Positions 489-27,650 of a DNA stretch of 38,487 bases are shown piece by piece. Positions within the stretch are counted from its first letter, which is position 1; the number at the start of each line of letters is the position of its first letter. The notes beneath the pieces were generated by a model that worked only from the letters and a program-made list of their open reading frames with translations, had not been told where the DNA came from and searched no databases. The position numbers and the translations under genes are program-made. This DNA is from Patescibacteria group bacterium (GTDB taxonomy: Bacteria; Patescibacteriota; Minisyncoccia; Minisyncoccales; Staskawiczbacteraceae): assembly GCA_038065835.1 (NCBI GenBank), contig JBBTQB010000029.1, positions 1-38,487 on the forward strand, given 5' to 3'.

Positions 489-1031
489 TTAAAATGTAAA
501 TATAAACCAAGTTCCTGGATAACCTAGAATAAATAAGACGGTATTGATAATAAGCCACGAGCCCAAGACCAAAAGTATTCCCCACAATGTTCCCCATAAT
601 ATGCTTTTACCTGTGTCAAATAATTTAGGGTATGCTCCGCCGATTAGCAATAATATACCACCTATTATTATAAGTAGTCCAGCCAAAGGAACAGCTATGG
701 TCCAGATGACAAATTTGTAAATATTTAAAATCAGTATGAAAACATGATATAATTCGCAACGGCAAACAAGTTGAACATTACAAGAGACTCTTGAGCTGCA
801 AGAACTACATGGAACAGTGGAAGTAAATAGTCCAAAAACACCACCAGTAGTAGTACAAATAGTTTCTCTGCCGCAAGGAACTAATCCCTTTGTGCCTCCA
901 TTTGATTCATCACATATAGCTGTTGCCTGAGCCTGAGCCTGAGCTTGAGCCTGAGCCTGAGCTTGAGCAATTACAGGAGGTAAATTTAAAAGCAAAAGTG
1001 ACAATAGAAATAAAAAAAATATCTTTTTCAT
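489..1031 (-). CDS. Secreted Cys-rich protein with C-terminal TM helices, CPR T4SS-pilin-like (TrbC/VirB2-type)
   Basis: Signal peptide MKKIFFLFLLSLLLL, an (AQ)n linker, a Cys-rich segment, then two hydrophobic helices. The architecture matches 37406-38017 and 38086-38427. The family assignment is from memory of PF18895-type proteins. Confidence 0.55.
   Translation of the reverse strand: MKKIFFLFLLSLLLLNLPPVIAQAQAQAQAQAQAQATAICDESNGGTKGLVPCGRETICTTTGGVFGLFTSTVPCSSCSSRVSCNVQLVCRCELYHVFILILNIYKFVIWTIAVPLAGLLIIIGGILLLIGGAYPKLFDTGKSILWGTLWGILLVLGSWLIINTVLFILGYPGTWFIFTF
925..968. repeat. Hexanucleotide microsatellite (GCCTGA/GCTTGA)n encoding the (AQ)n linker
   Basis: About 7 tandem 6-nt units, read directly, lying inside the 489-1031 CDS. 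Confidence 0.85.
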
Positions 1032-1181
1032 ACAATATTAAATAGAAATTAGAAACTGGAAAATATAAGTTTTCATAATATATATGCCCCCAGAAGGACT
1101 TTCATCCCCCACAAATATTTGCCTTGTGCCTCCGGCACGACTCGAACGCGCAACTTATGGTCCGAAGCCATAAATGATATC

Positions 1182-1288
1182 CCCGCCTGCCTCGCTAGTG
1201 CCCTCGGAGGGACTCGAACCCCCAATAACAGGTTCGAAGCCTGTCGTGATATCCATTTCACCACGAGGGCTCGGCATAGGCGGGCAGG
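1182..1288 (-). mobile_element. Family-A GC-rich hairpin element (CCTGCCCGC...GCAGGCGGG) carrying a tRNA gene
   Basis: Its termini are the same as in the copies at 12794, 15152, 15627, 17001, 31991 and 36268. Here the interior is a full tRNA. Confidence 0.6.
1199..1270 (-). tRNA. tRNA-Arg(UCG), nested copy, no encoded CCA
   Basis: GCCCTCG-TG-GTGA-AATGGATA-TCAC-G-ACAGG-CTTCGAA-CCTGT-TATT-GGGGG-TTCGAGT-CCCTC-CGAGGGC-A. Confidence 0.8.
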
Positions 1289-1528
1289 CATTTCACCACG
1301 GAGGCAAATTTTTGTGGGGGACAAGCCCTCAATCTATGGTCAAAAGTCCGTATGTGTTATCTGATTATAGCATAGAGGCAATGTTAGCTAATAATACATT
1401 AAAAATTGAAAAAGAGCAAGAATTAAGATAATATGTACTAATTTCTAATTTCGAAATATTAATAAGTTTTAATAATTCGAAAATTCTAATTTTATTCAAA
1501 ATTCAGAATTAGAAATTCAAAATTTATC

Positions 1529-3169
1529 ATGACAATTCCTAAAGAAATCAAAGCTGTTATCTCAAAATTGCAAAAGGCTGGGTTTCAGGCCTACATTGTC
1601 GGAGGATGTGTAAGAGATTTTTTGCTTGAAACAGAACCCAAAGACTGGGACGTTGCCACTAATGCCAAGCCAGAAGAAATACAGAAAGTTTTTCCAAATA
1701 ACTTTTACGAAAATAGGTTTTTAACGGTCACAGTAAAAACTGGCCCCGTTAGAAACAGCCCGCCCCAAAGGCCCTCTGGGCGCGCTAGCGCGGGCGGTGT
1801 TTCTAACGGGGCTGGCAGCGGTATTAATGAGGTTGAAGTTACAACGTATAGGCTAGAAGCCAAATACTCCGATAAAAGGCATCCAGATGAGATAAGATTT
1901 GCAAAAACTCTAGATGAGGATTTAGAAAGGAGAGACTTTACAGTCAATGCTATGGCGATAAGTGTTCTAAATGATAGAAATGTTCTAGATGTTGTAAATG
2001 GAAAAAATCAAGCGGAGCGATTGAACAAGCGAGCAAGAGCGAGCGATAGAACAGTTAAAACATATACAACAGAAGTTGTGGATTTGTTTGATGGACAGAA
2101 GGATTTGAAAAATAAAATAATAAGAACAGTTGGCAATCCAGAAGAAAGATTTAACGAGGATGCTTTGAGAATGCTAAGGGCTGTTAGGCTAGCCTCAACA
2201 CTGGGTTTTTCCGCTAAAGGCGGACCAGCCTTAGGCTGGAAAATAGAACCAAAAACCGCAGAGGCGATTAAAAAAAACAGCACTTGGTTAGAGACTATTT
2301 CAAAAGAAAGAATCAGAGATGAATTTTTGAAGATTGTTATGTCAGACAATGCATCTGATGGCATAGAGTTGCTCCGTGAACTAGAGCTTTTAAAGTTCAT
2401 TCTGCCAGAGCTTTTAGAAAACTATGGAGTTGGCCAAAATAAACATCACATTTACGACTGCTATACCCATGCCTTAAAAGCTCTAGCGTATACTGCTAAG
2501 AAAAAGTTTAATGTGCACGTGAGGTTAGCTGCTCTTTTCCATGATATTGCAAAACCCAGAGTAAAAGCAGGAGAGGGAAAAGATTCAACATTTTACAACC
2601 ACGAAGTTGTTGGGGCAAAAATGACTTTTGAAATTTTAAACAGATTGAAGTTTTCTAAGAAGGATGTTGAAAAAATAACAAAGCTTGTAAGATATCACTT
2701 GTTTTATTACAATGTTGATGAAGTTTCAGAGTCATCGGTAAGGAGGCTTGTAAAGAATGTGGGGACGGAAAACATAGAAGAGCTTTTACAAGTAAGGCAA
2801 GCTGACAGGATTGGATCTGGCGTTCCCAAAGCCGAGCCCTATAAGTTACGTCACTTAAAATATGTAATAGATAAGGTTTCCCAAGACCCGATTTCAGCCA
2901 AAATGCTAAAAGCTAACGGAAAGGATGTAATGGATATTTTAAATATTCAGCCGGGACCTAAAGTTGGCCAGATATTGAGCGTATTGCTGGGATATGTATT
3001 AGAGGATCCAAAAAAGAATAGTAAAGAGTTCTTGGAAAAAGAAATCAAAAAACTAGGAAAACTTTCTGAAAAAGAATTAGAGAAACTTTCTGTAAAATCA
3101 AAAGAAGAAAGAATGAAAATGGAAACTAAAAAAGATGAAATGACAAAGCAAAAGTATTGGGTTACCTAA
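1529..3169 (+). CDS. cca: CCA-adding tRNA nucleotidyltransferase with C-terminal HD domain
   Basis: N-terminal GGCVRDFLL...DWDVAT polymerase-beta head motif. HD region ...AALFHDIAKP.... Lys/Glu-rich tail. It is needed because many tRNAs here lack an encoded CCA. Confidence 0.85.
   Translation: MTIPKEIKAVISKLQKAGFQAYIVGGCVRDFLLETEPKDWDVATNAKPEEIQKVFPNNFYENRFLTVTVKTGPVRNSPPQRPSGRASAGGVSNGAGSGINEVEVTTYRLEAKYSDKRHPDEIRFAKTLDEDLERRDFTVNAMAISVLNDRNVLDVVNGKNQAERLNKRARASDRTVKTYTTEVVDLFDGQKDLKNKIIRTVGNPEERFNEDALRMLRAVRLASTLGFSAKGGPALGWKIEPKTAEAIKKNSTWLETISKERIRDEFLKIVMSDNASDGIELLRELELLKFILPELLENYGVGQNKHHIYDCYTHALKALAYTAKKKFNVHVRLAALFHDIAKPRVKAGEGKDSTFYNHEVVGAKMTFEILNRLKFSKKDVEKITKLVRYHLFYYNVDEVSESSVRRLVKNVGTENIEELLQVRQADRIGSGVPKAEPYKLRHLKYVIDKVSQDPISAKMLKANGKDVMDILNIQPGPKVGQILSVLLGYVLEDPKKNSKEFLEKEIKKLGKLSEKELEKLSVKSKEERMKMETKKDEMTKQKYWVT
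1743..1812. repeat. Family-D GC-rich palindrome inserted in frame in cca
   Basis: Arms GCCCCGTTAGAAACAGCCCGC (1743-1763) and GCGGGCGGTGTTTCTAACGGGGC (1790-1812). It encodes about GPVRNSPPQRPSGRASAGGVSNGAG. The termini match those of the 5227-5545 element. Confidence 0.7.
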
Positions 3170-3243
3170 TCATTTTTACGAAGATAAAAATGGAATTTTC
3201 AATTTTCAATTTTAAATCAATTTTTAATTCTTTAATTCTAAAA

Positions 3244-3315
3244 CGGGGATTAGTGTAGCGGCAACACGCACCGTTCGGGACGGTGAAACGGTGGGTCCAA
3301 CTCCCACATCCCCGA
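3244..3315 (+). tRNA. tRNA-Pro(CGG), no encoded CCA
   Basis: Acceptor CGGGGAT/ATCCCCG, anticodon arm CACCG-TTCGGGA-CGGTG (G37). The T-loop, read as TCCAACT, is atypical. Confidence 0.8.
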
Positions 3316-3321
3316 CAAAAA

Positions 3322-3531
3322 GGACCTGTAGTTAAATGGTAGAACAGCGCATTCGTCCCGATGGTGAAATTATTTTCACCATACGAGGATCCGCGATGGT
3401 TTTGGTGGGCCCGTGGTCTAACGGCATGACATCACATTCGCATTGTGGAAGTGGGAGTTCAATTCTCCCCGGGTCCACCAAAACTATCGGACATTGCGCA
3501 AATGGCGGTTCGATTCCGCCTAGGTCCACCA
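3322..3531 (+). tRNA. tRNA (Thr(CGU)-like) interrupted in the anticodon loop by a ~137-nt insert, CCA encoded
   Basis: The 5' part GGACCTG-TA-GTTAAATGGTAGAAC-A-GCGCA-TTCGT (3322-3356) and the 3' part AT-TGCGC-AAAT-GGCGG-TTCGATT-CCGCC-TAGGTCC-ACCA (3494-3531) form a cloverleaf. The anticodon call depends on the exact junction (CGT, or CGC/CAC). Confidence 0.55.
3407..3480 (+). tRNA. tRNA-Ala(CGC), nested copy, CCA encoded
   Basis: Acceptor GGGCCCG/CGGGTCC with G3:U70, anticodon arm TCACA-TTCGCAT-TGTGG, T-arm GGGAG-TTCAATT-CTCCC. Confidence 0.85.
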
Positions 3532-3595
3532 AGATTAAACTTTCAGGAATTTTGTCGATTGATTGTATTTTAACAGAGAAATGAACGGGCGACCA

Positions 3596-3635
3596 GCAAA
3601 AAATTTCCTGGGGCCAGGGGCAGGAAATTTTTTGC
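3596..3635. repeat. Family-C hairpin, copy 1
   Basis: Perfect 15-bp stem GCAAAAAATTTCCTG / CAGGAAATTTTTTGC with GC-rich loop GGGCCAGGGG. Outer ACGGG/CCCGT pairing extends the stem. Confidence 0.8.
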
Positions 3636-3690
3636 CCGTACGCCGATGGAAAAAACTTGACTTACGTATGAGTTTTGCTATGATTAACTC

Positions 3691-3975
3691 ATGAAAAAGA
3701 CAATGTTAGAATTTAGTCTTCCAGTATCTATTTTGCGGGAAGGTAAAAAATATGTCGCCTATACACCAGCGCTGGATTTGTCTACTTCTGGTAATACATT
3801 TGAGCAAGCAAAAAAAAGATTCGATGAAATGGTTTATCTTTTTTTTGAAGAAATTTTTAAAAAAGGAACTGCAAAAGAGGTTTTAATGGAATTGGGATGG
3901 CAGAAAATTCATGAAAAATGGAATCCACCAATTGTGATTTCCAATGAGTCGCAGATGGTTAAATTGTCTTACTAG
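3691..3975 (+). CDS. hicB: HicB-like antitoxin (UPF0150 fold)
   Basis: 94 aa. The N-terminus ...FSLPVSILREGKKYVAYTPALDLSTSGNTFEQAKKRFDEMV... is typical of HicB-like domains. The gene is immediately followed by a HicA-like frame. Confidence 0.7.
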   Translation: MKKTMLEFSLPVSILREGKKYVAYTPALDLSTSGNTFEQAKKRFDEMVYLFFEEIFKKGTAKEVLMELGWQKIHEKWNPPIVISNESQMVKLSY

Positions 3976-3976
3976 T

Positions 3977-4207
3977 ATGGCGGGTATAAAACCTATTCAC
4001 TAGAAAAAGTTTGAAAAATTTCTTCTTTTCGCGGGATGTAATTTTGAGCGGGAAAAAGGTGATCACAGGATTTATTGGAGAAAAGATTTAAAAAGGCCGG
4101 TAGTCATTCCTAGAGAAAGCGAATTACCAGTATTTATTATCAGAAATAATTTGAGAGTTTTAAAAATAGATACTACGGAATATCTTGAAATTTTAAAAAG
4201 AATTTAA
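3977..4207 (+). pseudogene. hicA: HicA-like toxin with an in-frame TAG at codon 9
   Basis: Reads MAGIKPIH*KKFEKFLLFAGCNFEREKGDHRIYWRKDLKRPVVIPRESELPVFIIRNNLRVLKIDTTEYLEILKRI. The KG-x-H...IP pattern resembles HicA/YcfA. There is no in-frame start after the stop, and no ORF is listed in the track. Confidence 0.55.
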
Positions 4208-4278
4208 AAGCTAATTGCCTTTTTGAAATTTTGTGCTAGATTTAGCCTAGCCCATTAACATCAAAAAAGGAGAAAAAC

Positions 4279-4827
4279 ATGTCAGAACAAGAAAGTTTAA
4301 GTACCCCCGACGGCGATTCAAAAGATGTGATAGATGAGGCATTGGGGGGACCTGATTCCGATTTGGCGCCGATGCCAAAAGAAGAACCAAGCGTTGAATT
4401 TGATGAGTTGCTGGATGAGGGGAGGCTCGAGATTAAGTCTGTGGAAGATGGAGTCGAAAAAGCAAGAGGTATCCTGGAGGATCTTTTGAAGAACAATAAC
4501 CCAGAAACACGTTCCGAAGAGATCCAAATTCTGCTAGAAAAATCCAAAATAGAAAAGGATCCCGGGCTAATGCAATTGATTGAGAGGGCTGGAAGATCCT
4601 TGGCTTTTGGAGCGGCGCTTAACGGACTTCTCAATGAAATGAATAAACGCCATAAAGGAAGGGCACTCGGCTTTATTGGCGAAAACGATGCAGCCAAGCT
4701 GGAACGCTACTTGCCAACACCAAATCTTGGAAGTAACGATGATTTGGAAAAAAACAGTAGCGACGGAAGAAAGATTGCAGATTTAGGAGAAATACTTGAG
4801 CAGATAGGAAAGCTGGCATCGGCATAA
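4279..4827 (+). CDS. Hypothetical acidic protein (GC-richer than the backbone)
   Basis: 182-aa ORF with AAGGAG 8 nt upstream of the ATG, and a hairpin plus T-run about 15-45 nt downstream. No family recognised. Confidence 0.6.
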   Translation: MSEQESLSTPDGDSKDVIDEALGGPDSDLAPMPKEEPSVEFDELLDEGRLEIKSVEDGVEKARGILEDLLKNNNPETRSEEIQILLEKSKIEKDPGLMQLIERAGRSLAFGAALNGLLNEMNKRHKGRALGFIGENDAAKLERYLPTPNLGSNDDLEKNSSDGRKIADLGEILEQIGKLASA

Positions 4828-4911
4828 CAACACAAAGAAGCCTGAGATTGCATCAAGGGCTTTCTTTTTTGTAAAACAATTAAAACACACAACTTTTTTT
4901 AGTGGCGAGAA

Positions 4912-4949
4912 GGCAAAAATTTTCTGGCCTGGGAGAGAAAATTTTTGCC
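4912..4949. repeat. Family-C hairpin, copy 2
   Basis: Stem GGCAAAAATTTTCT / AGAAAATTTTTGCC with loop GGCCTGGGAG. Orientation and architecture match 3596-3635. Confidence 0.8.
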
Positions 4950-4980
4950 CGCTGGCCGTTCGCCGCTCTGCCCCCGTTTT

Positions 4981-5016
4981 CCGCGCGCCCCGCGGGGCGC
5001 GCGGTGTCCATTTTTC
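4981..5016 (+). terminator. GC-rich hairpin with T-run
   Basis: CCGCGCGCC-CCGCGG-GGCGCGCGG followed by TGTCCATTTTTCG. Confidence 0.45.
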
Positions 5017-5125
5017 GTTTGTTTTTCAAAATCTTTCTTGCTAAAATACAATTAATCCGCTTCGGGGTTTTGCTCGTAGTAAGTTCTAACTTTTTTCAAT
5101 AAAGACCACCTCGTTAGAAGTCTGG

Positions 5126-5189
5126 ACAAAATGCTAATTACGAGACCCGGTCTCGTCAACGAGACCGGGTCTCGTAATTAGCATTTTGT
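5126..5189. repeat. Perfect 29-bp inverted repeat with a 6-nt loop, containing the family-B core ACGAGACCCGGTCTCGT
   Basis: ACAAAATGCTAATTACGAGACCCGGTCTC - GTCAAC - GAGACCGGGTCTCGTAATTAGCATTTTGT. Confidence 0.85.
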
Positions 5190-5226
5190 TGTATGATGCT
5201 TTCTATTTATCGATCTAATAGTTTAA

Positions 5227-5545
5227 CCCCGTAGAATTTAAATTACATCCGCCAAGGGCCGCGGGTCTCGTACTAAATCAGCTTTAGAAGCCCAAAAATG
5301 ATATGATTTCAAGGAGTAACGAGGAGACTTATCAGGCGGTCAGCGATAAGTCGACGAAGTTGCGACACAGAAATCAGCCATTTTTGGGCTCCCCCGAAGG
5401 GCGGGTGAATTCAGGCAAGATTCATCGTTGCTTGTCGCTCACAATGCGATTGCATTAGGCTCGCTCCTCGCGCCTTGAATCTTGCCTGAATTCTGACCGC
5501 TAAATTGATTCGGTACGAGACCCGCGGCCCAAGCTTCTAACGGGG
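5227..5545. mobile_element. ~320-nt multi-helix element (MITE-like, or an unknown structured RNA) with family-D termini
   Basis: Nested perfect helices: 5227-5236/5535-5545, 5256-5273/5513-5530 (18 bp), 5289-5300/5379-5390 (12 bp), 5407-5424/5476-5493 (18 bp), plus small hairpins. Confidence 0.5.
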
Positions 5546-5550
5546 TCCAT

Positions 5551-5586
5551 AAAAAAGCCGCTTTTTGTTCTGGGTTAAAAAGCGGC
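5551..5586 (-). terminator. Rho-independent terminator of the 5599-6573 gene
   Basis: On the minus strand: GCCGCTTTTT-loop-AAAAAGCGGC followed by TTTTTT. Confidence 0.7.
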
Positions 5587-5598
5587 AAGTGGGATAGA

Positions 5599-6573
5599 TT
5601 ATCTCACTATCGCATAGTTTGTCACGATGCGCACACGATAATTTCCCATTGATACGTTGTTCCAAGGACTTGGCACGATGTGGAGGAATAATCTGCCTTC
5701 ATCTGTAGGAATGCCATCATAGCGCTCTCCAATGATGAATTTATTTCCCTGTTCTCCAATTCGGCCTAGAAGAACTCCAGCCATGAAAGTTCCTCCTTTG
5801 CCAGCAGTAGTATAGCCCTTTGGGGTAGTCATGTACTGACCAGCTCCCTGCGGCCAAAGGTCTACTTGTCCATTAGCTGTTGCAATCAGTCTCATATTTT
5901 TTCTAATGATGATGCCGGTATCGAGCCAATCGCTCGGATTGACATGTTTTGCAGCGTCAACATTAAACTCCCTTTGGTGTTTGTTGCCTCCGCAAATTGT
6001 TCGGAGGCAAGAGAGCTTGAGACTGAGATCGCCCAGTTGACTAGAGCGCACTTTAAGTAAAGTGCCCTTTAATTGTCCTCGCGCAGTGAACTCCGCTGTT
6101 CTAACAGTATCTTGCTCATCTGCAGAAAGAAGCTCAGGTGGCGCTCTTTTTTTAATGTTCTTGATAATTTGTGTTACGCGTTTTGCGCGCTCAAGATCAT
6201 CCTTGCACTCAACCTTTTTTAAGAGCGGATACACAAAGCATTCAATATCTTCTTCTTGGAGATATTTTGTAGCTTCTTCCCGTTCCTTGTAAACACTACT
6301 GCCAAGGCTAGCGATTGAGCTCTCAATTTTTTCTCTGAGGTTAGGAGGATAGTGAATCCCAAACTCAATTTGGCAGACATCCCCCAGAGGGATTTTGAGC
6401 TCGCCATACTTGGTGGAAAGCGTAAGATCTGCTTCTAAAATAGTAACCTTCAAAAAGTCGCCGCCCCTTAGTTTAACATCAAAGCAAGGAAGCTTCTTTG
6501 GTTGAGAAGTTTCCCCTACAGATGTAGAGGTTGCTAAAAGCAGACAAACCACCATTCCAAACATGTACTTCAT
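5599..6573 (-). CDS. Secreted protein with a C-terminal PA-IL/LecA-like lectin-type domain (tentative)
   Basis: Signal peptide MKYMFGMVVCLLLATSTSVG. The C-terminus ...GQVDLWPQGAGQYMTTPKGYTTAGKGGTFMAGVLLGRIGEQGNKFIIGERYDG...GRLFLHIVPSPWNNVSMGNYRVRI resembles LecA-like domains from memory. AGGAG RBS and its own terminator. GC-richer than the backbone. Confidence 0.6.
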   Translation of the reverse strand: MKYMFGMVVCLLLATSTSVGETSQPKKLPCFDVKLRGGDFLKVTILEADLTLSTKYGELKIPLGDVCQIEFGIHYPPNLREKIESSIASLGSSVYKEREEATKYLQEEDIECFVYPLLKKVECKDDLERAKRVTQIIKNIKKRAPPELLSADEQDTVRTAEFTARGQLKGTLLKVRSSQLGDLSLKLSCLRTICGGNKHQREFNVDAAKHVNPSDWLDTGIIIRKNMRLIATANGQVDLWPQGAGQYMTTPKGYTTAGKGGTFMAGVLLGRIGEQGNKFIIGERYDGIPTDEGRLFLHIVPSPWNNVSMGNYRVRIVTNYAIVR

Positions 6574-6693: not shown

Positions 6694-6767
6694 GGGCTCA
6701 TAGTAAAATGGTATTACGCACCCTTCGCATGGGTGAAGTCCGGGTTCAACTCCCGGTGAGTCCACCA
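6694..6767 (+). tRNA. tRNA-Ala(CGC), second and divergent copy, CCA encoded
   Basis: Acceptor GGGCTCA/TGAGTCC with G3:U70, anticodon arm CACCC-TTCGCAT-GGGTG, T-arm CCGGG-TTCAACT-CCCGG. Confidence 0.85.
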
Positions 6768-10102: not shown

Positions 10103-10177
10103 AAAGACTCTAAAGAGTGCAGGATTCGAACTATCATCAATCTGATGATAGTTCGAATCCTGCACTCTAATGTCTTT
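10103..10177. repeat. Complete copy of the 26-nt-arm palindrome (tRNA T-arm-like sequence)
   Basis: AGAGTGCAGGATTCGAACTATCATCA-ATC-TGATGATAGTTCGAATCCTGCACTCT, extended by AAAGAC/GTCTTT. Confidence 0.9.
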
Positions 10178-20394: not shown

Positions 20395-20477
20395 TGCGCG
20401 GGACAGGAGTCGAACCTGCACGCCCGTGAGGGCACTGGCACCTCAAGCCAGCTCGGCTACCGTTACGACACCCGCGC
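20395..20477 (-). tRNA. tRNA-Leu(GAG), class II with a long variable arm
   Basis: Acceptor GCGCGGG/CCCGCGC, anticodon arm CTGGC-TTGAGGT-GCCAG, variable arm TGCCCTCACGGGCGT. Confidence 0.85.
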
Positions 20478-21174
20478 GTGTTTTTTGGCGTGCTATTGAT
20501 AATATATTTTCTATTTTAATTTTTTTTCTTTTTAAACAAATTACTTCACTATTGTAATAAATTCTTTCCAGTAATTTCAGAGATTCAGTCTTGGCGTACT
20601 TAAGTTGGTAAACTGAACTATTAATGCCTTTAGTAATGTGGCCTTTAATTTTTAAATTTTTTGTTATTGTTTCTTTAAGCCATTCCACATGATTCTTACT
20701 GGCAGAAACAAAAACTATATAAAACATAAAACTTGATCTCCATCGATTATCCCAATACGAGTACGATGAACCATCACCGTCAAAATGTCCCCGGAGAAAA
20801 TCAAAAAAATATTTTCTAGGAATCTTCAGCTTACTAAGAGTTTTTGATTTATTAGGAAATAAACCAATGCTTAACAAAAATTTATAAAAGTTTACATCTC
20901 CAAATTGTAATACATAATATTTCTTTTCCTCCTCTCCACCTCGAGCTTTTTTCCCAATTTTATTATTAAGGTTAAGACAAAGTTTGAAATTATCTATTTG
21001 CTCTTTGTCTTTTGAAGTAAAACTTATATGACGGCCATCTTTTATAAGACATCCATCGGTGGTAATCAGTCCTATTGCATAGGCTAGTTGAGGTGACCAT
21101 AGTGTTGATACTTTATTAAGGGGTTTCATTAGTTCATTATACCTCAAAGTATAAGTGAATACCAATCTTGTCAT
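20443..21174 (-). CDS. Free-standing double-motif LAGLIDADG homing endonuclease
   Basis: LAYAIGLITTDGCL and FLRGHFDGDGSS motifs. The 3' end of the ORF runs about 35 nt into tRNA-Leu. Confidence 0.8.
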   Translation of the reverse strand: MTRLVFTYTLRYNELMKPLNKVSTLWSPQLAYAIGLITTDGCLIKDGRHISFTSKDKEQIDNFKLCLNLNNKIGKKARGGEEEKKYYVLQFGDVNFYKFLLSIGLFPNKSKTLSKLKIPRKYFFDFLRGHFDGDGSSYSYWDNRWRSSFMFYIVFVSASKNHVEWLKETITKNLKIKGHITKGINSSVYQLKYAKTESLKLLERIYYNSEVICLKRKKIKIENILSIARQKTRAGVVTVAELA

Positions 21175-24234: not shown

Positions 24235-27200
24235 TTATTTTTTAAATTTAGAATTTGTTTGTGATTTAGAATTTGTAGTTTGAGATTTTTTGCCTATAAT
24301 ATTCTCAAACTCTTCCCTCTCTATTGTTTCTTTCTCAATTAGGGTTTTGGCAATTTTTTCGAGTAACTTTTTATGCTGCCTTACTATTTTTCCAGCTCTT
24401 ACTTCTTCACTTTTGATAATTTTTTCAATCTCTGCATCTATTTTTGTCGCCACTGCTTCAGAATAATTTCTTTGTTCTGATATTTCCCTGCCTAAAAATA
24501 CCAGCTCATCTCTGTCACCAAAAGATATTGGTCCCAAAGAAGACATGCCATATTCTTTCACTATTTTTCTGGTTAACTCAGATGCTTTAACCAAATCGTT
24601 TGAAGCACCTGTAGACATTTCACCAAATATCAGTCTTTCAGCTGAAAGTCCTCCTAACAAAGTGGCAATTTCAGCCAAGAATTGGGTCTTTGTTCTCATT
24701 TTGTTTGATTCTGAAGGAACTTGCAAAGTATATCCGCCAGCCATGCCTCTTGAGATAATGGATATTTTTCTTATTGGCTCTGTTCCGGGAATTGAGCTGG
24801 AAACCAAAGCATGTCCTGCTTCGTGATATGCAGCAATCTCCTTTTCTTTTTTTGATAAAATATGAGATTTCCTTTCAGGACCCAGTAAAACTTTTTCTAT
24901 TGATTCTAAAAATTCTCCCTGTGAAACCTGTGTTTTATTCCTTCTTGCAGCTAATAAAGCAGCTTCATTTGCCACATTTGCCAAATCAGCCCCTGAAAAC
25001 CCGGGTGTTCTTTCAGCAATTTCTTTGAAGTTTACATTAGAAGACAATGGCTTTTCTTTTGAATGGATTTTTAAGATTTCTTCTCTATCATGGACGTCTG
25101 GCAGATCCAAAACAATTTTTCTATCAAACCTGCCTGGCCTTAAGAGAGCTGGGTCTAAAATATCTCCCCGGTTGGTATTATGTAATAAGATTGGTTCCTC
25201 GCCGCCAAAAAATGCTTCATTATTACAACCGCAAAAGTCATATACATATCCGTTATAGGGAATTTTTTTAACGTTTTTTATCATTGGCCTTTCCACTGAA
25301 CCAGAAATTCTTACATCTTGATCTAATAAAGGATTTTGAGTTTTGCCGAAACCCAACCTCCATGCAATGCTTGTTTTCAATGGTTTACCATTATTAATTA
25401 CCCTTCCCTCTTTTGTTTTAAAAGAATGAATATACCCTTTAAATCCGTGCATTCTGAATAGCCAGTTAAGCTCTATGATCAGCTGTTTGCTCATAGAAGT
25501 AACTTCTCCTCTATCTCTTTTATCAATATGACCATCTCCATAAAAATATCCCTTAAAATACTCTTTAAAATATTCGAATGGTGCTTCAAAAAGGAAAGAA
25601 GGTACATGCTTATTTTTTGCCCCCTTGCCACAATAAAAAGAAAAGAAATTAGCTAGTGGGGTGCATTGGTACACAATATTTACCGCACTGTTGCTTGTCA
25701 GCCTTACAGTATGAGGTTCGATATTAAATATATTTTTCATTAACATTTTAACATCTTGTATTTTTGCAGTTTCCTTCCTATTGAAACAGAAGTCTACTTC
25801 ATTTCTTGCATATCCCTCGGCAGTATAGTAACCAAGAAGACGCATTAATTCCGGAGTAACTTTTACGGTTTCTGGCAAGACATTTTTATGCTGGTAGTAA
25901 TTCCTGGAAAGTTGCCTTGGTCCGCATATCCCTTGTTGCCATTTTCCAATAGTCCTCTGTGAAAATCCAAGATCTTTACCCAATTGGGTCTGGGAAATTT
26001 CACCAACGTGAGCTAAAGCATATTGATAATTAAAATGTATCGGCTCGAATCTTTCAAAAAGTGGTTGCCATACAGAAAGTTCAAGATTAAAACTTGTATT
26101 AAATGTATGCGCTCTAATTTCTTTTTTATGAGAAGTTCTATTAGCTTTATATGGCATGTTTACCAGAATGTCTCCTTGGACAAGGTCAGCAACTGCTTTT
26201 GTTTTTAATCCACTACGAGTTCTTACAAACACCGAATGGTTTCCGGTTGCTTTGATTTTTCCGCCAACATATTCAATTTCGTAAATTTCTTTTACTTTAT
26301 GCCGAAACACACTTCGCACCTTCTTGAAGGCACTATGAGAAAAGTAGACACTATTTTTATTGCGTCCAGTTAATATTTTTTTTTCAAACCCCAACACTTC
26401 AATTTCAGGAGAGTCTTTTTCTACATTTTCTTCACCCTCTTGGTAATAAGGATCAATAACCTGAGAAATTGGCAATAATTTGTAATTATTATTTTTCTTT
26501 ATTAGGACCTGGGTATCTTCAGTAACACTCGCTGCCATAACAATTACTCCAGACTCTCTTTCAAAACCATCCATTTCAACCAAAATCATATTTAATGTTT
26601 GCTCTCTCTCATCATGTCCTCCGCCAATTCCAGCTCCCCTGTGGCGCCCAATGGCATCTAGCTCATCAATAAAGATTATTGACGGGGAAGCTTTCTTTGC
26701 CATAGAAAATAAATCCCTCACTCTTGCCGATCCCACTCCAACAAACATTTCAACAAATTCTGACCCCGAAATGGAAAAGAATGGTACATTGGCCTCACCA
26801 CTGACGGCACGCGCCAATAAAGTTTTTCCCACTCCAGCAGCCCCTAAAAGCAGTACGCCCCTTGGTATTTTTGCTCCCATTGCTAAATACTTTTTGGGAA
26901 ACTTCAAAAAATCTACAATCTCTATCAGCTCTTCTTTAGCTTCTTTTAATCCTGCAACATCCTTAAAAGTTATTTTTTGTTTATCATGGCCCTCAGCTCC
27001 AAAAATTCTGGCTTTTGCCCTTGTAAAATCAAAAACTTGCATAGCCCCAGATTTTGTTTGCTTTAGCATTGTCCAAAGGAAAAATCCAATAAGAAGCAAT
27101 GGTAAAACCCCGTAAAGTAAAGCAGGAAACAACCAAGTCCACATGCTTTGTTGTTCTAGTTCAGCTGATATTTCAACTTTTTGTAATTTTACTGGATTAG

Positions 27201-27468
27201 CTCCCAAATTAACCAAAACTTCCGACAATACAGAGTTTGTCTCTTTCATTGAAATGGCTTTTGATTCATTATTATAAGTTATGGCTATGCTCTCGCCAGA
27301 AACAGCAATTTTCTTAACTTTATCCTGATTTATTTCAGAAACTAACTGGGAAATTGATATTTGATTTGACTCGCCTGTTGGAAAATAAAACAAGCTGAAA
27401 ACACCCCCTATGGCCAGGAATATTAGTACAACAAAAATAAAGTTTTTAATAAGTGGATTTAGTTTCAT
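24235..27468 (-). CDS. ftsH: ATP-dependent zinc metalloprotease FtsH, intein-containing
   Basis: Walker A GAAGVGKT, Walker [12 protein letters not shown] ...[12 protein letters not shown], zinc site HEAGHAL. The preferred start is MKLNPLIKN (27468). The track ORF extends to 27576 across the divergent promoter. Confidence 0.9.
25177..26529 (-). mobile_element. FtsH intein (451 aa) with a LAGLIDADG homing endonuclease domain
   Basis: The host sequence VIVMAA|...|[12 protein letters not shown] is interrupted. Intein blocks: SVTEDTQVL (Ser1), [17 protein letters not shown] and [15 protein letters not shown]...ILLHN followed by Thr+1. The codon phase was checked at both junctions. Confidence 0.85.
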
Positions 27469-27519
27469 ATTGACAATATAACACTCTTTTAAATATCTTT
27501 CAACCTCAAATAGGTGGTA

Positions 27520-27548
27520 TTGACACATTGTAGTGTATATGATATCAC
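27520..27548 (+). promoter_or_regulatory. Promoter TTGACA-N14-TGA-TATCAC, second copy of the shared block
   Basis: See 8439-8467. It lies between the divergent ftsH start and the orphan gene. Confidence 0.55.
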
Positions 27549-27650
27549 TAAAATAGTACCTCACATTACACTTCATGCGATTTTGCTCATACTTGTGGGT
27601 AAAATCGTGTGAAGTGTTTCGAGATTTCCCATTTCCGAAAGGATAAGTCC

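Follow-up and report, generated by a model that had tools for sequence, protein, structure and literature searches.

The window analyzed here is a 38,487-nucleotide (nt) stretch of DNA from a bacterium of the Patescibacteria (candidate phyla radiation, CPR) near Staskawiczbacteria. At positions 3322 to 3531, it contains a tRNA-Ala(CGC) gene whose anticodon loop is cut by a 136-bp palindromic insert, and the insert itself contains a complete tRNA-Ala(CGC) gene. We refer to this nested arrangement as locus 2; at locus 1 (1085 to 1379, minus strand), tRNA-Arg genes are nested in the same manner, three deep. Further nests were found in related genomes. We consider it probable (roughly 60%) that the outer tRNA-Ala gene is a nonfunctional shell, split when a mobile, hairpin-forming insert brought in a replacement tRNA-Ala(CGC); the replacement would be released normally, and only insertions carrying a cognate tRNA would survive. 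We class the finding as a mobile-element insertion into a tRNA gene for which the element itself compensates.

The best genome match of the CCA-adding enzyme encoded in the window is 66% identical, and the same population is present in Hainich groundwater and in other samples. For comparison, 94 related CPR loci (766 kb, 248 tRNA genes) were fetched by synteny with the CCA enzyme. The closest relatives of the window have CCA enzymes that are at most 74% identical to its own, and they carry the inserts of neither nest.

A tRNA-Ala(CGC) gene inside a tRNA-Ala(CGC) gene

The first-pass annotation of this region had described a tRNA gene nested in the anticodon loop of another tRNA gene. The flanks are indeed the halves of a single gene, as complementary profile matches demonstrate (see below), and all of the sequence features listed by that annotation are present at 3322-3531, with edges shifted by 1 to 2 nt (Table 1). 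The inner tRNA-Ala(CGC), with its G3:U70 pair and its CCA, was confirmed by ARAGORN and by a score well above the curated threshold of the Rfam tRNA family (RF00005, 29 bits); its acceptor strands GGGCCCG and CGGGTCC produce the G3:U70 pair. In a pattern scan, the outer 3' half appeared as an orphan T arm. The insert was made without target duplication and without loss of target bases. Its ends (TCC...GGA) are mutually paired as terminal inverted repeats, with 3356-3365 pairing with 3482-3491 and 3390-3406 pairing with 3477-3491, and the distal part of the right arm can alternatively pair with 3356-3365. The inverted repeat said to bracket the inner tRNA was found at 3394-3416 and 3467-3489, where the arms are 87% complementary. 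Together with the inner acceptor stem, the arms are predicted to form a 22-bp helix of -37.2 kcal/mol. The 9-bp hairpin recognized earlier (3361-3369/3374-3382) extends to 14 bp over 3356-3389, and its base TCCCGATGGT nearly repeats the beginning of the adjoining arm TCCGCGATGGT.

The minimum-free-energy (MFE) fold of the whole 210-nt segment contains the outer acceptor, anticodon, and T stems together with the inner cloverleaf, at a z-score of -6.1 relative to shuffled sequences. A pairing scan found that the outer 5' acceptor strand is able to pair with the inner 3' acceptor strand. ARAGORN with introns of 0 to 300 nt allowed reported neither nest, because the junctions are noncanonical.

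The outer gene was examined with an Ala(CGC) profile built from 44 tRNAs and searched with nhmmer over 1.3 Mb of sequence. Positions 3322-3355 matched profile positions 1 to 34 (E = 1.1e-3), and positions 3492-3529 matched profile positions 35 to 72 (E = 4.4e-5); the two halves are thus complementary on the profile, with no missing and no extra bases. Joining 3355 to 3492 (TTCG to CAT) restores TTCGCAT, the invariant 7-nt loop of the family. The joined gene aligned without gaps to 17 Ala(CGC) genes with all 21 cloverleaf pairs formed, and it was 80 to 83% identical to the Ala(CGC) genes of relatives, with 83% identity to that of L109. Its position is also conserved. Relatives share the order Lys(CTT)-Arg(TCG) on the minus strand, CCA enzyme, and Pro(CGG)-Ala(CGC) on the plus strand, and in L172, L173, and L002 an uninterrupted Ala(CGC) gene begins 5 nt past tRNA-Pro, the same spot at which the outer gene starts in the window. 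Because of this position, the similarity, the profile match, and the alignment, the outer gene is, as judged from its sequence, the ancestral tRNA-Ala(CGC), with nt 35 and 36 separated by the insert. It carries A3:U70 and is the only one of the 18 aligned sequences without G3:U70 (17/18 have G:U), a pair present in 47 of the 48 Ala tRNAs of the data set.

The first-pass annotation had read the outer gene as Thr(CGU)-like. It was right that the joined halves make a cloverleaf, since ARAGORN called a full tRNA at every junction tried, and right that a shift of the junction alters the anticodon, which came out as CGC, CGT, CAC, or GAC according to the cut position. Thr(CGT) was obtained when at least one insert base was kept 5' of the junction, and Val(CAC/GAC) was obtained for other cuts; A3:U70, in addition, is not an alanine feature. 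Nevertheless, it is very improbable that the host is of a Thr(CGU)-like (or Val) type with no relationship to the inner tRNA-Ala. Deleting segments and rerunning ARAGORN is too permissive to place the cut, and the junction was set by the family profile, which is matched in complementary halves with no extra bases. The anticodon CGU arises only if insert bases are counted as exon, whereas the invariant family loop is obtained from TTCG and CAT only. A bulge-guided cut would place C37 in the outer gene, while a purine at 37 is expected of tRNA-Thr(CGU). The gene sits where relatives have Ala(CGC), and all of its similarity is to Ala(CGC), in a data set that held too few Thr(CGU) genes for a profile. 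Inner and outer genes also have the anticodon in common at every other nest.

A chance resemblance, or a misassembly joining reads of two tRNA genes, is barely conceivable. Both nests lie near the break points of short contigs from this population, and tRNA genes are repetitive, but the window is 100% identical in five independent assemblies (one contig of an NCBI metagenome-assembled genome, two ENA contigs, and two Logan contigs from other samples). Locus 2 is covered end to end by L161 and L163, and locus 1 is covered by L161 and L162. Both half-profile E-values are significant, the fold z-score is that given above, and the arrangement recurs in unrelated contigs. The Thr(CGU) reading and an assembly artifact are therefore effectively excluded.

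Nests at a second locus and in related bacteria

The argument that two such loci speak against coincidence holds, since the second locus, previously placed at 1106-1320, is real and is three genes deep. At locus 1, an intact tRNA-Arg(TCG) lies in the D loop of a second, which in turn lies in the T loop of a decayed outermost shell. ARAGORN rejects this shell: its 7-bp acceptor stem is kept, its D stem is lost, and its anticodon loop has 8 nt. Among Arg genes, the shell most resembles those of L166, L167, and L109, the closest relatives, whereas the inner gene shares 93% identity with the one in L085, which is much more distant. Because the shell resembles close relatives and the inner gene resembles a distant one, their sequences suggest an outermost resident gene and a foreign inner Arg copy. 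At locus 2, the two Ala copies give a less clear picture of affinity, with best matches of 83% for the outer gene and 78% for the inner gene.

Six further nests, three clear and three probable, were found among the 94 related loci (Table 1). This gives nine insertion events in all: one at locus 2, two at locus 1, and one each in L105, L135, L128, L020, L113, and L170. Inner and outer anticodons are identical in all nine, and the insertion site is a D, anticodon, or T loop in all nine. The insert ends are self-pairing in the nine events, with a helix that mostly begins 0 to 4 nt from the junction, and most inserts terminate in 5'-(T)CCC...GGG(A)-3'. At five of the six readable junctions (locus 2, the inner junction of locus 1, L135, L020, and L105), the loop is restored exactly, with no duplication and no loss. 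The state of the shells is graded: stems are perfect at locus 2 and in the middle gene of locus 1, and shells are decayed in the outermost gene of locus 1 and in L128, L020, L113, and L170. In L105, the inner gene and the outer ends have identical sequence, and the outer middle has diverged. An interrupted tRNA gene without an intact cognate copy inside was not seen in the loci scanned. The only genomes that share a nest are L170, L171, and L175 to L177, which are mutually 99.9% identical.

Several shells also bear tRNA-free hairpin inserts, located around the D arm or between the D arm and the anticodon stem. In L170, the right end of the insert takes the place of the first codons of an ABC-transporter gene. 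Some candidates were rejected as nests: a Leu fragment (L020:8344-8437) and a Pro fragment in L130 are tandem partial copies, and those in L090, L125, L137, and L001 were chance acceptor matches. Ala genes that follow tRNA-Pro were also seen in decay. One such gene in L008 (3020-3093) is Ala(CGC)-like with A3:U70 and has mismatched anticodon and T stems, and in L167 (3296-3330) there is a mere remnant (...CCTAAGTCCACA).

Table 1. Positions of the nests and of associated features in the window and in related loci
Feature	Position	Strand	Description	Evidence
tRNA-Pro(CGG)	3244..3316	+	Upstream neighbor of locus 2	ARAGORN; Rfam, 54 bits; Pro-Ala(CGC) order conserved in relatives
Outer tRNA-Ala(CGC), 5' half	3322..3355	+	nt 1-35; acceptor GGACCTG, D arm, GCGCA, TTCG; A3 not G3	Profile
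Insert, 136 bp	3356..3491	+	Between outer-gene nt 35 and 36	Boundaries from profile and duplex prediction
Empty palindromic unit	3356..3389	+	14-bp hairpin, TCC-CG-ATGGTGAAA / TTTCACCAT-CG-GGA	Sequence; MFE fold
Left helix arm	3390..3406	+	TCCGCGATGGTTTTGGT; extends inner acceptor stem	Inverted repeat I13
Inner intact tRNA-Ala(CGC)	3407..3480	+	G3:U70, A73, encoded CCA	ARAGORN, Ala(cgc); Rfam, 58.9 bits
Right helix arm	3477..3491	+	ACCAAAACTATCGGA; overlaps inner ACCA end	Inverted repeat; duplex prediction
Outer tRNA-Ala(CGC), 3' half	3492..3531	+	nt 36-76; CAT, TGCGC, T arm GGCGG-TTCGATT-CCGCC, TAGGTCC, ACCA	Profile
Locus 1, three-level tRNA-Arg(TCG) nest	1085..1379	-		ARAGORN, Rfam, folds, profile
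Locus 1, inner intact tRNA-Arg(TCG)	1199-1270	-		ARAGORN; Rfam
Locus 1, helix arms around inner gene	1271-1288 and 1182-1198	-		Fold
Locus 1, middle tRNA-Arg(TCG)	1289-1305 + 1127-1181	-	Cut in D loop	3' part, profile E = 1.5e-10
Locus 1, helix arms around middle gene	1306-1321 and 1105-1126	-	16-bp helix	Fold
Locus 1, outermost decayed tRNA-Arg shell	1322-1379 + 1085-1104	-	Cut in T loop	z = 6.8-7.9 versus Arg tRNAs
Miniature inverted-repeat transposable element (MITE)	1740..1815	+	Terminal inverted repeats CCCCGTTAGAAA at 1744-1755 and 1800-1811; 4-bp target duplication CTGG	
Free-standing tRNA-Ala(CGC)	6694..6767	+	Different sequence type	ARAGORN; Rfam, 63.3 bits
L105 nest	L105:89-365		Ala(TGC) in Ala(TGC)	Clear
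L135 nest	L135:422-622		Arg(TCG) in Arg(TCG)	Clear
L128 nest	L128:7490-7755		Pro(CGG) in Pro(CGG)	Clear
L020 nest	L020:7650-7850		Pro(CGG) in Pro	Probable
L113 nest	L113:5578-5760		Ala(CGC) in Ala	Probable
L170 nest	L170:5608-5820		Ala(CGC) in Ala	Probable

Palindromic mobile elements and a proposed origin of the nests

Small palindromic inserts abound in these genomes. A MITE with CCCCGTTAGAAA ends sits in frame within the CCA-enzyme gene (coding sequence, 1529-3169). Compared with its 74% identical relative, this gene has three in-frame inserts of about 21, 23, and 10 codons, located at 1740-1815, about 1965-2035, and about 2213-2242, respectively; the third holds the palindrome CCAGCCTTAGGCTGG. 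These inserts resemble the in-frame palindromic elements of Rickettsia. The CCCCGTTAGAAA family is multicopy across contigs and was found, with 4-bp target duplications, at three places: the CCA-enzyme gene of the window, L093, and L087. In L093 (5339-5446), the element lies inside a tRNA-Pro at position 9/10, where the element end CGGGG and the duplicated TGTA rebuild the 5' end of the tRNA, and an orphan CGGGGTGTA remains upstream. In L087 (about 1739-1847), it lies directly 3' of the discriminator base of a tRNA-Ala, with TCCA duplicated. The same repeats connect two of the nests to mobile elements: the inner tRNA-Ala of L170 is flanked by CCCCGTTAGAAA repeats (12/12 and 11/12 matches), and the arms of the L135 insert resemble them. 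One viral contig has the element; the inner tRNA had no match among the viral contigs searched.

In the reading that we favor, the insert at locus 2 would be one of a population of small hairpin-forming mobile elements active in these Patescibacteria. Such elements would enter the single-stranded-prone loops of tRNA genes without duplicating the target, and folded single-stranded DNA chemistry, with HUH-type or hairpin-recognizing enzymes, would fit insertion that is confined to loops and free of duplication. The 136-bp palindrome would have cut the original tRNA-Ala(CGC) and delivered a complete tRNA-Ala(CGC) on a long stem built from its own two ends. The outer gene would then be a nonfunctional, unspliced shell and the inner gene the presumed working copy, cotranscribed with tRNA-Pro from a shared upstream promoter and freed by ordinary end processing through RNase P and 3' trimming. 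The 22-bp stem may prevent the homologous outer halves from pairing wrongly with the inner tRNA, and RNase III could also act on it. Where the interrupted tRNA gene is essential and, as is usual, present once, an insertion would be viable only with a tRNA cargo of the same anticodon. Such a survivorship filter would explain why inner and outer genes match, and it would likewise account for serial nesting and for the gradient of decay: repeated rounds would have produced the three-deep nest at locus 1, with shells decaying as they age. The first-pass annotation had implied that a mature host tRNA is spliced from the outer halves. This part of it was not borne out, as the host lacks G3:U70, other shells are decayed, and the search for splicing signatures was negative.

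The window that holds the outer shell also has two intact Ala(CGC) genes. Given the third Ala(CGC) gene at 6694-6767, the outer gene is doubly redundant. The sequence type of this third gene matches the distant lineages L095, L137, and L015 at 85 to 86%. No tRNA was called in the region of L167 that flanks a homologous 327-amino-acid (aa) gene, so the 6694-6767 copy may be a mobile acquisition too. In L015 and L095, an Ala gene of this type is flanked by its own leader-trailer helix.

Several observations weigh against insertion and replacement. Exact, duplication-free, loop-only insertion closed by a helix is also the look of a spliced intron, and the locus 2 shell and the middle shell of locus 1 still have perfect stems. 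No transposase or recombinase was identified. Plain CCCCGTTAGAAA elements leave 4-bp target duplications; none accompanies the tRNA-carrying inserts. Copies of the insert arms were sought in the 38 kb of this genome and in the fetched loci, 1.4 Mb together, and returned noise only; the arms of the nests share no longer sequence, and none recurs. Because the arms are not repeated, a multicopy transposon family is not demonstrated for the locus 2 insert. The L105 pattern requires the extra assumption of gene conversion between the two copies. Finally, the survivorship argument requires that the elements have a strong bias toward tRNA genes, for which the two plain elements in L087 and L093 are the only hint.

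One alternative is a true tRNA-carrying intron: the whole unit would be transcribed, the insert excised from the RNA at the 35|36 boundary, and the outer halves ligated, yielding two tRNAs per gene. The basal stem of the insert would be recognized by a bacterial cut-and-join system, such as RNase III or RNase P with an RNA ligase such as RtcB, or by an acquired endonuclease of the archaeal type. The exact junctions at the five sites named above, the nine loop insertions with a closing helix mostly 0 to 4 nt away, and the retention of all stems in the locus 2 shell and the locus 1 middle shell are what such an intron predicts, and a 4-bp helix (TTCG/CGGA) with a 3-nt bulge (CAT) is loosely like half of a bulge-helix-bulge. 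We nonetheless regard an intron of this kind as distinctly unlikely. Inspection of 3347-3365 and 3480-3499 showed that a bulge-helix-bulge at the Ala-restoring junction needs a CATT/ATCG helix, which does not form. The alternative helix TTCG/CGGA with bulge CAT has a second bulge of 5 nt, and this relaxed motif would not restore tRNA-Ala but would lead to the loop TTCGTCT, with a pyrimidine at 37. Since the outer gene lacks G3:U70, it would not be charged with alanine even if it were spliced. A sensitive Rfam scan of 1000-5700 (E ≤ 1) returned tRNAs only, with no match to RF00028 or to any other intron or ribozyme family. The marker genes of the window (NusA, trigger factor, ClpP, RNase Y, bL19, FtsH, and class II CCA enzyme) are bacterial, in agreement with the earlier expectation that no archaeal splicing enzyme is at work, and no splicing endonuclease or ligase was seen among the open reading frames (ORFs) of the 38-kb window. 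Older shells are plainly dead, and every interrupted tRNA seen had a replacement copy inside.

Endonuclease-driven homing, which would compensate for the interruption by replacement and not by splicing, is also unlikely. Here, an enzyme whose gene lies elsewhere in the genome would cut the resident tRNA gene, and repair would copy in a split-site, cut-immune allele with a resistant replacement tRNA; the allele would spread by gene conversion, with the tRNA halves serving as homology arms. Exact, duplication-free junctions are the normal product of homing, cognate specificity would be a direct outcome of an enzyme that recognizes one tRNA gene sequence, and the inner tRNA-Arg at locus 1 looks horizontally derived. 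The window also encodes a free-standing LAGLIDADG homing endonuclease (243 aa, 20443-21174, minus strand), the ORF of which overlaps at its 3' end tRNA-Leu(GAG), the head of a Leu-Val-Phe-Gly tRNA cluster. In addition, FtsH (gene at 24235-27576, minus strand; 1113 aa) has its AAA and lid domains separated by an intein that bears a LAGLIDADG domain, and GIY-YIG ORFs adjoin orthologous tRNA genes in L169 and, by a weak match, in L166/L167. However, neither nest contains or adjoins an endonuclease gene. The insertion sites vary among D, anticodon, and T loops, even within tRNA-Arg, and no insert is common to two genomes beyond the near-identical L170/L171/L175-L177 group. Homing would explain the spread of a nested allele but not the origin of the first one, and it leaves the pairing of the insert ends unexplained. 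Two bolder variants are unlikely, even when taken jointly. In one, a hairpin-borne tRNA gene homes into loops of its own cognate gene and could be guided by tRNA-to-tRNA-gene homology or by a folded single-stranded target. In the other, the nests are genuine bacterial tRNA introns from which an unknown protein machinery removes the insert, so that one locus gives two (or three) tRNAs.

Other origins were considered and rejected. An integrase-mediated island would give a full tRNA and one 3' remnant rather than a nest, and no integrase is present. Tandem duplication or circular permutation would give the order B-A-B-A and not A-[AB]-B. Template switching from the gene's own flanks does not apply, as the arms are unlike the native leader or trailer.

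Known systems and other features of the window

tRNA genes are among the most conserved and least insertion-tolerant genomic targets, and the tRNA sets of Patescibacteria are minimal and mostly single copy. The locus 2 insert fails a defining test of each known class tested. Integrative elements such as phages and genomic islands likewise target a tRNA gene, supply tRNA sequence from the incoming DNA, and leave a partial remnant. However, they span kilobases, encode an integrase, replace the 3' part only, and leave a single direct repeat at the far end, whereas the locus 2 insert is 136 bp long and holds a whole tRNA gene, with both old halves flanking it and no recombinase present. MITEs, the palindromic elements of Rickettsia, and the Correia and REP/BIME families are small and geneless, have ends that form a hairpin, and insert into genes. 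The in-frame insertion in the CCA-enzyme gene is of this kind, and the L170 and L135 nests end in MITE-type repeats; the locus 2 insert differs in having no target duplication, and no further copies of it turned up in the 1.4 Mb searched, of which 38 kb are from this genome. We know of no member of these families that carries a complete tRNA gene or sits in a cognate tRNA gene.

Bacterial group I introns occur in tRNA anticodon loops, as in cyanobacterial tRNA-Leu(UAA), and they share with locus 2 an exact anticodon-loop insertion at similar positions (34 to 37). The first-pass annotation had held that the insert is not a group I intron, and we agree: no group I core was matched in Rfam (RF00028), 136 nt is below known group I sizes, the 5' exon ends in G35 rather than U, and the insert ends in A3491 rather than G. 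In phage T4, the free-standing endonuclease SegB reportedly replaces whole tRNA regions by gene conversion, without nested genes. The likeness to intronless homing in T4 is that tRNA regions host selfish replacement, with free-standing endonuclease ORFs near tRNAs in this window and in relatives; in contrast to SegB, no endonuclease is adjacent to the nests.

In archaeal tRNA introns and in split and tri-split tRNAs (Thermoproteales, Nanoarchaeum, and Caldivirga), the D, anticodon, and T regions are interrupted, and such introns have been proposed to move between tRNAs (PMC10714607; PMC4090602). Archaeal introns and the nests have in common a helix where exon meets intron and the occurrence of several interruptions per gene. 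Archaeal introns are cut at a bulge-helix-bulge by the splicing endonuclease and the exons are ligated, whereas locus 2 is in a bacterium, its restoring junction is without the motif, its host has lost the identity pair, and its insert is a tRNA with the same anticodon. In a literature search of incomplete coverage, no report of bacterial tRNA genes nested in cognate ones came up.

If insertion and replacement is correct, the nests represent a new route of horizontal tRNA gene replacement and a bacterial counterpart to the split and multi-intron tRNAs of archaea, and the origin of interrupted tRNA genes, along with the need for splicing, becomes directly testable. The recurrence of the pattern, like a Russian doll with up to three levels, among related groundwater bacteria of tiny size would point to an undescribed process of tRNA gene invasion and replacement. 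The exact, loop-restricted, duplication-free junctions would likewise point to an uncharacterized folded-single-strand insertion chemistry in these organisms. Nests would also be a source of annotation error, as tRNA finders miss the shells and contigs break at the nests.

Other palindromic sequences lie elsewhere in the window. At 10114-10168, a perfect 26-nt palindrome joins a 3' tRNA segment (TTCGAATCCTGCACTCT: T loop, T stem, and acceptor) to its reverse complement and may have been left by head-to-head integration sites. The roughly 2 kb directly downstream of locus 2 (3532-5590) are missing from the closest relative, L167, in which the 327-aa gene, a homologue of the 324-aa gene of the window, lies within about 70 nt of tRNA-Pro. 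This region encodes ORFs of 94 and 182 aa without Pfam matches, and a palindromic unit of roughly 50 nt occurs in it twice (about 3595-3650 and about 4905-4965). A 31-nt perfect palindrome is located at 5126-5189. A 437-bp block lies between inverted CC(T/C)CGTTAGAAG repeats (5109-5120 and 5534-5545) and includes a strongly paired 275-nt segment (5256-5530) that has no Rfam match.

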